The position numbers were made by a program, and so were the translations under genes. Shown one piece after another: positions 2 to 850 of a stretch of 64,000 nucleotides of DNA (positions are counted from its first letter, which is position 1; each line of letters opens with the position of its first letter). The stretch lies in the NCBI RefSeq assembly GCF_000026545.1, contig NC_011601.1, one strand, 5' to 3'. The notes below the pieces were generated by a model that worked only from the letters and a program-made list of their open reading frames with translations, had not been told where the DNA came from and did not search any database. This DNA comes from Escherichia coli O127:H6 str. E2348/69. Lineage in GTDB: Bacteria > Pseudomonadota > Gammaproteobacteria > Enterobacterales > Enterobacteriaceae.

Positions 2-850
2 TCTACTAAAGGGATTCGTGAAGGACATACAGTCATTATATTTAAACAATCTGATGGTTCGACTAATCGTTATGAAGGGAAGTCTTTTGAAAGAAAAGAT
101 GATAGTTTATTACACCTGATTACTAACAAGGTTCTGGCGTGTTACCAACGCGAAGCTAACAAGGAAATAGCGCGTCTATTAAATAATCTACAGAAGTTAA
201 ATAATCTACAGGGGTTAAATGATTCGCAGGTGAGTTGTAAAGGTTCAGTTGATTCTACGATTACGGATTTATTAGAAAAAGCATTGAATAAAGCCTTATT
301 AGCAATAAGGAACGAACATCTGCTATTAATGCCTCATGTATGTGATGAATCGATTTCATACTTACTGGGCGAAAATGGTATACTTGAAGAAATAGATAAG
401 CTCTACGAATTAAATGATCACGGAATTGATAATGACAAAGAAGGTAACAATGAAATTAATGACATCATGATTAACCTGTCTCATATTCTTATTGAATCCT
501 TAGATGATGCAAAGGTTAATCTTACACCGGTCATCCATTCGATGTTGGTGACTTTTTTAGATTTGCCATATAATAATGATGTAAAAATACTGGAGTGGTG
601 TTTTAATAAAAGCATGCAATATTTTGATGATTCTGCAAAGATAGAGCATGCATGCTCCGTAATAAATCATATTAATTTTCGCCGCGATCAGTCTAAAGTA
701 GCTGAGACATTATTTTTCAATCTCGATAAAGAGCCCTATAAAAATAGCCCTGAATTACAGGAGTTGATTTGGAAAAAGTTGGTTGTATATGTCAATGATT
801 TTAATTTAAGCAATCGAGAAAAAAACATATTTAATACAAAGGATATTTAA
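2..850 (+). CDS. 3' portion of a hypothetical protein; reading frame is open from the window start, so the 5' end lies upstream
   Basis: Frame is open from position 2 to the stop at 848-850; the track ORF 230..850 begins at an internal GTG. Contains an in-frame 18-bp tandem repeat. By position it would correspond to the gene upstream of argI, but I do not recognise the sequence. Confidence 0.45.
   Translation, partial: STKGIREGHTVIIFKQSDGSTNRYEGKSFERKDDSLLHLITNKVLACYQREANKEIARLLNNLQKLNNLQGLNDSQVSCKGSVDSTITDLLEKALNKALLAIRNEHLLLMPHVCDESISYLLGENGILEEIDKLYELNDHGIDNDKEGNNEINDIMINLSHILIESLDDAKVNLTPVIHSMLVTFLDLPYNNDVKILEWCFNKSMQYFDDSAKIEHACSVINHINFRRDQSKVAETLFFNLDKEPYKNSPELQELIWKKLVVYVNDFNLSNREKNIFNTKDI
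179..220 (+). repeat. In-frame 18-bp tandem repeat (ttaaataatctacagaag / ttaaataatctacagggg), about 2.3 copies, encoding LNNLQK-LNNLQG-LN
   Basis: Direct inspection of the sequence at 179-223. Confidence 0.8.

Follow-up and report, generated by a model that had tools for sequence, protein, structure and literature searches.

What is the short in-frame tandem repeat at the start of this stretch of DNA, and does it matter to the gene that carries it? The window that we analysed, 64,000 nucleotides from Escherichia coli O127:H6 str. E2348/69, opens inside a reading frame in which an initial annotation, made from the letters alone, had seen about 2.3 tandem copies of an 18-bp unit encoding LNNLQK/LNNLQG. 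It had added that such repeats can vary in copy number without breaking the frame. Our analysis leads to a reading that we regard as very probable: the repeat is a known coding minisatellite (VNTR) of the gene yjgL, or icaR, whose E2348/69 allele has collapsed to three units and persists as a neutral relic in a pseudogene.

We initially examined the array itself. TRF reported it at 179-220 with a period of 18, 2.3 copies, 91% matches, a score of 70 and the consensus TTAAATAATCTACAGAAG; in the whole 64-kb window, only two tandem repeats, this one included, reached a score of at least 50. When read in codon register, the array extends beyond the TRF limits and comprises three 18-bp units at 179-232 on the plus strand: unit 1 at 179-196 (TTAAATAATCTACAGAAG, encoding LNNLQK), unit 2 at 197-214 (TTAAATAATCTACAGGGG, encoding LNNLQG) and unit 3 at 215-232 (TTAAATGATTCGCAGGTG, encoding LNDSQV). 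Only two of the three are near-identical, sharing 16 of 18 bases. The longest exact match at period 18 was 15 nt, a length reached in none of 500 shuffles of window 1-1250 (maximum, 13 nt). The in-frame 18-bp repeat noted at 179-220 therefore held up, both in the TRF analysis and against the shuffled sequences, as well as in the orthologous arrays described below.

To place the repeat in its gene, we compared the region with other E. coli genomes. Window positions 1-1300 match the E. coli E2348/69 (EPEC O127:H6) chromosome with 100% identity; in this chromosome, the gene order is pyrB-pyrL-yjgH-bdcA-bdcR-tabA-yjgL-argI-rraB-yjgM-yjgN-valS. The gene at the same position in K-12 and O157 is annotated yjgL (604 and 578 codons, respectively), and the window region shows 91 to 96% DNA identity to annotated yjgL genes. 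Both this similarity, which runs along the whole length, and the position between tabA and argI place the sequence in the YjgL/IcaR family. The 3′ part of the gene occupies 1-1251 on the plus strand (1,251 nt) and ends at the original TAA (1249-1251). The start lies 375 nt upstream of the window, so that window positions equal yjgL gene nucleotides minus 376. The GC content of yjgL is 26 to 35%, versus 53 to 57% in the neighbouring argI. The ornithine carbamoyltransferase gene that adjoins yjgL, at 1304-2317 on the minus strand, carries the RefSeq name argF in all strains examined, although its position is that of argI in K-12; the discrepancy concerns nomenclature alone. Small minus-strand ORFs also lie over the yjgL region, as is expected in AT-rich DNA.

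The product of yjgL has been studied in Shigella flexneri, in which the gene, renamed icaR (formerly gem3), is MxiE/IpgC dependent and its product is secreted by the type III apparatus (PMC9241512, PMC9769918). In E. coli, icaR is silent without MxiE and IpgC, and the authors considered it a possible "fossil" gene; E2348/69 was the one B2 strain examined that still had icaR, and orthologs showed "internal additions" (PMC9241512). The 140 nt upstream of the yjgL ATG in E2348/69 are identical to those in O157. Using the MxiE-box consensus GTATCGTTTTTTTANAG, we detected no site with three or fewer mismatches in the E2348/69 locus; the best upstream candidate had five mismatches to this consensus and was the same in all strains. 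A scan of 1-1400 for promoters and terminators returned no more sites than did shuffled sequence. Among 1.84 billion representative proteins, searched exhaustively with a profile, we found only one further full-length cluster plus fragments, and the YjgL family is thus essentially confined to Escherichia and Shigella. NCBIfam gave no meaningful match for YjgL. The Pfam SopA central domain (PF13981) scored 24.6, 16 and 21.1 bits in three alleles, below the gathering threshold of 27, and this sub-threshold match falls downstream of the array, at K-12 residues 342-407.

The RefSeq annotation describes E2348/69 yjgL as "frameshifted; internal stop." We located the lesions by alignment to the intact alleles of K-12, O157 and VCSW7. 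All lie on the plus strand. A -1 deletion precedes the window by 18 nt, and after it the frame set by the yjgL ATG meets its first stop, a TGA, at 117-119 (gene nucleotides 493-495), 59 nt before the repeat. A +1 insertion follows in an A-run at 819-825, which has seven A residues here and six in intact alleles; with it, the ancestral frame ends at TAA 848-850. Changes in T-runs at 904-923, +1 and then -1, create an in-frame TGA at 915-917. Further downstream are a -1 frameshift at 985-991 (GAAAAAA followed by TT, versus GAAAAGATTT in intact alleles), a nonsense change from TGG to TGA at 1226-1228 and a -1 deletion in an A-run at 1232-1237. In place of the intact frame of the family, E2348/69 thus has four 1-bp indels, one local +1/-1 shift with its TGA, and one nonsense codon. 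Directly aligned with intact VCSW7, it shows a single gap of 216 nt (12 units) in addition to the -1, +1, -1 and -1 indels and the in-frame stops. By its sequence, then, E2348/69 yjgL is a pseudogene member of the YjgL/IcaR family, and translation that begins at the native yjgL ATG should not reach the repeat. The "first ORF" to which the repeat had been assigned is real as an open frame, with codons at 2, 5 and so on, running from the window start to TAA 848-850. It is not an intact gene; it is the ancestral frame of the decayed one, because translation from the native ATG stops at 117-119. Within a pseudogene, preservation of the frame is without consequence for a protein, and the repeat thus exerts no protein-level effect in E2348/69.

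An earlier report ascribed the short IcaR of E2348/69 to truncation by an IS element (PMC9241512). Neither the annotation nor the alignments showed an IS element in the E2348/69 yjgL locus. In contrast to that account, the short product is explained here by frameshifts and stops, and the published remark on icaR can be corrected on this point. Elsewhere, yjgL is interrupted by IS1 in SWYHX138.261ft (L009 718-1415), with the same seen in some other strains, and 2012C-4502 and NT1W22 carry internal stops in the gene. To judge from these sequences, yjgL appears to be decaying independently in several lineages.

We then mapped the primers of published typing assays onto the locus. The CVN002 primers (PMC8143711) find their sites at 65-86 (forward, two mismatches) and 352-372 (reverse, no mismatches), giving an in-silico amplicon at 65-372 on the plus strand of 308 bp. 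CVN002 has a unit of 18 bp, and its allele number is (PS-272)/18, in which PS is the product size (PMC8143711). For E2348/69 this yields (308-272)/18 = 2.00, or allele "2." The same formula gives 12 for K-12, 8 for O157 DEC4E, 14 for VCSW7 and 18 for 06-00048; the results were whole numbers in all nine strains computed, a set that includes the window and leaves out G8 and 042. Published CVN002 alleles 0, 1, 3, 8, 10 and 18 are compatible with the range that we found. As cited in later papers (PMC8143711, PMC3407997), CVN002 belongs to the generic E. coli/Shigella MLVA scheme of Lindstedt et al. 2007.

The second assay targets VNTR-34, which is the same as Vhec2, TR6 and O157-34 and consists of an 18-bp unit inside ORF Z5865 (PMC3321953; 18 bp also in PMC3768571). 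Its primers (PMC8461963) bound the region 125-241 on the plus strand. The forward site, 125-151, has two mismatches, both terminal, whereas the reverse site, 210-241, has six mismatches in E2348/69 and two in O157. Because of these six mismatches, the O157 assay might not amplify E2348/69. In O157:H7 DEC4E, the primers flank the yjgL array with two mismatches each, both terminal. From this mapping, made in DEC4E, an O157 strain other than the EDL933 to which Z5865 belongs, together with the published ORF assignment (PMC3321953), we infer that Z5865 corresponds to yjgL. Both markers therefore agree with the repeat in having primers on either side of it, a unit length of 18 bp and a copy number that differs between strains. 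Primer sites and unit length together show that the repeat is the E2348/69 allele of CVN002/VNTR-34 and is already known. The "internal additions" described in IcaR orthologs (PMC9241512) are this 18-bp VNTR. Literature searches for yjgL together with VNTR or MLVA returned generic MLVA papers alone, and the match came via locus names and primers. As the locus has served in strain typing of E. coli and O157 for about twenty years, it has little value as a discovery; the useful gain is that an observation on raw sequence now has the name of a marker and that of a gene attached to it.

The initial annotation had suggested comparing copy number across strains, with invariance in all homologs as the outcome that would speak against its claim. 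We read 14 loci directly for unit counts. The array has 13 units in K-12, 9 in O157 DEC4E, 15 in VCSW7 (six of them identical and consecutive), 19 in 06-00048, 7 in SWYHX138 and 8 in 2012C-4502. EC21Z-151, E. coli B and NT1W22 have 3 units each, a trio different from that of E2348/69 (LNIPQE, LNNS(Q/H)D, LNNSQV), and G8 and 042 have 1 each. For a wider survey, we used a query made of the flanks only, window 40-178 joined to 230-400, which matched 4,788 of 5,426 complete E. coli genomes. Inserts between the flanks measured 9 nt, 51 nt or 123 to 339 nt, corresponding to about 1, 3 and 7 to 19 units. In an evenly spaced sample of 60 of the 4,788 genomes, 28 had the 51-nt insert (3 units), 15 had 8 to 15 units and 16 had the 9-nt insert (about 1 unit); the last was a partial match. 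Twelve lengths, namely 7, 8 and 10 to 19 units, occurred among the 60 alleles whose flanks most resembled those of the window (97.7 to 99.4% identity). O157 strains in the sample had 9, 10 or 11 units, and 120 protein clusters spanned 1 to 11. Among arrays of at least three units, every sampled size difference was a multiple of 18 bp. The identity bands of the first flank-only search are unusable as a census of copy number, and E2348/69 itself ranked low in that search because its 51-nt insert is scored as a gap. Copy number is thus strongly variable, from 1 to 19 units, and in-frame variation is confirmed in steps of 18 bp among arrays of three or more units.

A distant ortholog of yjgL lies at the tabA-argI position in GCA_028622315.1 (CP117580.1; L016 4001-5588), with 49% identity over the N-terminal 200 residues. 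This ortholog is split into three ORFs and lacks the LNNxQx array; in the same genome, bdcA and bdcR are absent between pyrB and tabA. Since the array is missing from this ortholog, the expansion would have arisen within the E. coli yjgL lineage.

In contrast to the species-wide variation, the E2348-type allele is invariant. Of the seven genomes that have it, three are O127:H6 and the remaining four come from two humans, one pig and one monkey; all the copies that we read (the window and three of the four non-O127:H6 genomes) carry the same three units. All five E2348-type records whose annotation we consulted (E2348/69, DCE7, A25, Z1323HEC0423 and the O127:H6 type by identity) are annotated as pseudogenes. 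The non-O127:H6 relatives that were read have in common with E2348/69 the upstream -1 deletion and the -1 deletions near 990 and 1233. The +1 at 819-825 is absent from these relatives, whose run has six A residues, and one of them keeps TGG at 1226-1228; the seven-A run is specific to the three O127:H6 genomes. The shared lesions therefore suggest that the array had collapsed, and the first frameshift had occurred, before these strains diverged and that decay has continued since. Another short allele, the three-unit LNIPQE-LNNSQD-LNNSQV, is identical in dozens of protein clusters. In a published serial-passage experiment, Vhec2 did not change even at 6 to 10 units, giving a rate of <4.4e-5 per generation, while eight 6- to 7-bp VNTRs mutated in the same experiment (PMC3777172). 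Given this rate, variation at the locus looks slow, and short alleles look stable.

These observations are consistent with the following course of events. Each 18-bp unit specifies six residues in the pattern L-N-N-x-Q-x. Neighbouring near-identical units would misalign, by replication slippage or unequal recombination, and whole units would be gained or lost; each such change would alter the protein by six residues and keep the frame. Because 18 is a multiple of 3, the locus gives length variants and no on/off switch. Long alleles hold runs of identical units, and the six in VCSW7 are a ready substrate for misalignment. In the E2348/69 lineage, a long array may have contracted to three units. 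The units that remain look like in-register chimeras of long-array units: LNNLQ-G joins the common LNNLQK unit to the ending of LNNIQG, and LNDSQ-V joins the internal LNDSQE unit to a terminal unit in ...QV. Little substrate for misalignment is left in E2348/69, since only two units are near-identical, and the array would now be a neutral, fairly stable relic in a gene with at least five other inactivating lesions. Because the units differ by point mutations yet conserve the L, N and Q positions, a protein-level constraint may shape the array in addition to DNA mechanics.

We considered three other explanations. One holds that the repeat arose by chance, as a duplication in low-complexity, AT-rich DNA, and is unrelated by origin to any repeat array. 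Short repeats are likelier in a region of 26 to 35% GC, and 2.3 copies is not many, but neither the 15-nt match at period 18, which no shuffled sequence reached, nor the TRF score of 70 fits this idea. Orthologs carry 7 to 19 units of the same consensus at the same position, one of them identical to 179-196, and these arrays already refute the idea; we give it practically no credence. Another explanation treats the locus as phase variable, with repeat number switching yjgL on and off or retuning its promoter. A phase-variable contingency locus would be expected to mutate at a rate of roughly 1e-3 to 1e-5 per generation or higher. Switching of this kind is common for tandem repeats that lie within genes encoding surface or secreted proteins, and the yjgL product is a type III secretion substrate in Shigella. 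However, a unit of six codons never changes the frame, in keeping with the sampled differences, which are all multiples of 18 among arrays of at least three units. The array also sits in the middle of the gene, away from the promoter. Its mutation rate was under the limit of detection, <4.4e-5 per generation, in an experiment in which 6- to 7-bp VNTRs mutated alongside (PMC3777172). Moreover, the E2348/69 gene was inactivated by frameshifts that have nothing to do with the repeat. Neither a frame shift nor a promoter change by repeat number was found, and we consider phase variation highly improbable.

The remaining explanation places the cause in the protein. It supposes a structural repeat, such as a solenoid or a coiled-coil spacer, whose length tunes the spacing of domains and which is kept and diversified by selection on IcaR function or antigenicity, with DNA misalignment supplying only the variation. 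Within the hexapeptide, L1, N2 and Q5 are conserved and the other positions vary, and intact alleles keep their arrays in frame. Further, a family member appears in one source under the name "SopA-central-domain-like hexapeptide repeat protein," and the SopA central-domain match that follows the array, weak at 24.6 bits against a threshold of 27, points the same way. On the other side, intact alleles with 1, 3 and as many as 19 units are all common, which argues against a need for any set length. Pseudogenes and IS-interrupted copies of the gene are frequent, as also reported by others (PMC9241512), the gene is silent in E. coli without MxiE/IpgC, and the 49%-identical ortholog does without any array. 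We also obtained an AlphaFold2 model of K-12 YjgL from 25 close sequences, with a mean pLDDT of 54 and a pTM of 0.32. It shows no solenoid. Confidence is lowest over the repeat (K-12 residues 186-263), with a pLDDT of about 24 to 40; this stretch is flanked by an alpha/beta region on its N-terminal side and by a helical region on its C-terminal side. This model hints that the array may be a low-complexity flexible linker in intact alleles. A structural repeat kept by selection is, in our judgement, very unlikely. We hold equally little expectation that the length of LNNxQx tunes IcaR activity, secretion or immune recognition and that selection, not drift, lies behind the range of 1 to 19 units. 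In the same vein, EPEC E2348/69 has an active LEE type III system, and the shrinking of its array and the decay of its gene could be the outcome of selection against a substrate that interferes. We therefore retain the reading of the array as a collapsed minisatellite allele in a pseudogene.

Two further tandem repeats in the window deserve mention. The functionally more interesting in-frame repeat is a perfect 12-bp one at 34477-34516 (TAAGCTCAGCGG, 3.3 copies, TRF score 80) within the ORF at 33866-35092 on the minus strand. This ORF matches Pfam Methylase_S in two stretches (131.8 bits), and the repeat encodes 12 residues between the two target-recognition domains of a type I restriction-modification specificity subunit. 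In EcoR124-type HsdS, the number of TAEL repeats sets the length of the spacer in the recognition sequence, and it is for this reason that we rank the 12-bp repeat above that of yjgL. The other is a weak 9-bp repeat at 2836-2854 (GGCGAAGAT, 2.1 copies, TRF score 31) in the acidic C-terminal tail of rraB, and it is probably trivial.

Finally, the locus can be set beside known systems. Like the contingency loci of Neisseria and Haemophilus, it is a tandem repeat within a coding region, with copy number probably changing via strand misalignment; unlike them, it has a long unit that is a multiple of three, a low rate and no known on/off phenotype. By position (tabA-yjgL-argI) and sequence, the gene is the same as icaR of Shigella, although the report on icaR does not call the internal length differences an 18-bp VNTR (PMC9241512). 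Compared with VNTR-34, for which German O157 isolates have 4 to 12 repeats (PMC3321953), the three units of E2348/69 lie below the O157 range. With CVN002, there is no difference in kind: the locus is the same, E2348/69 carries a short allele, and the CVN002 count of "2" differs from our three units because we include the last, degenerate unit.
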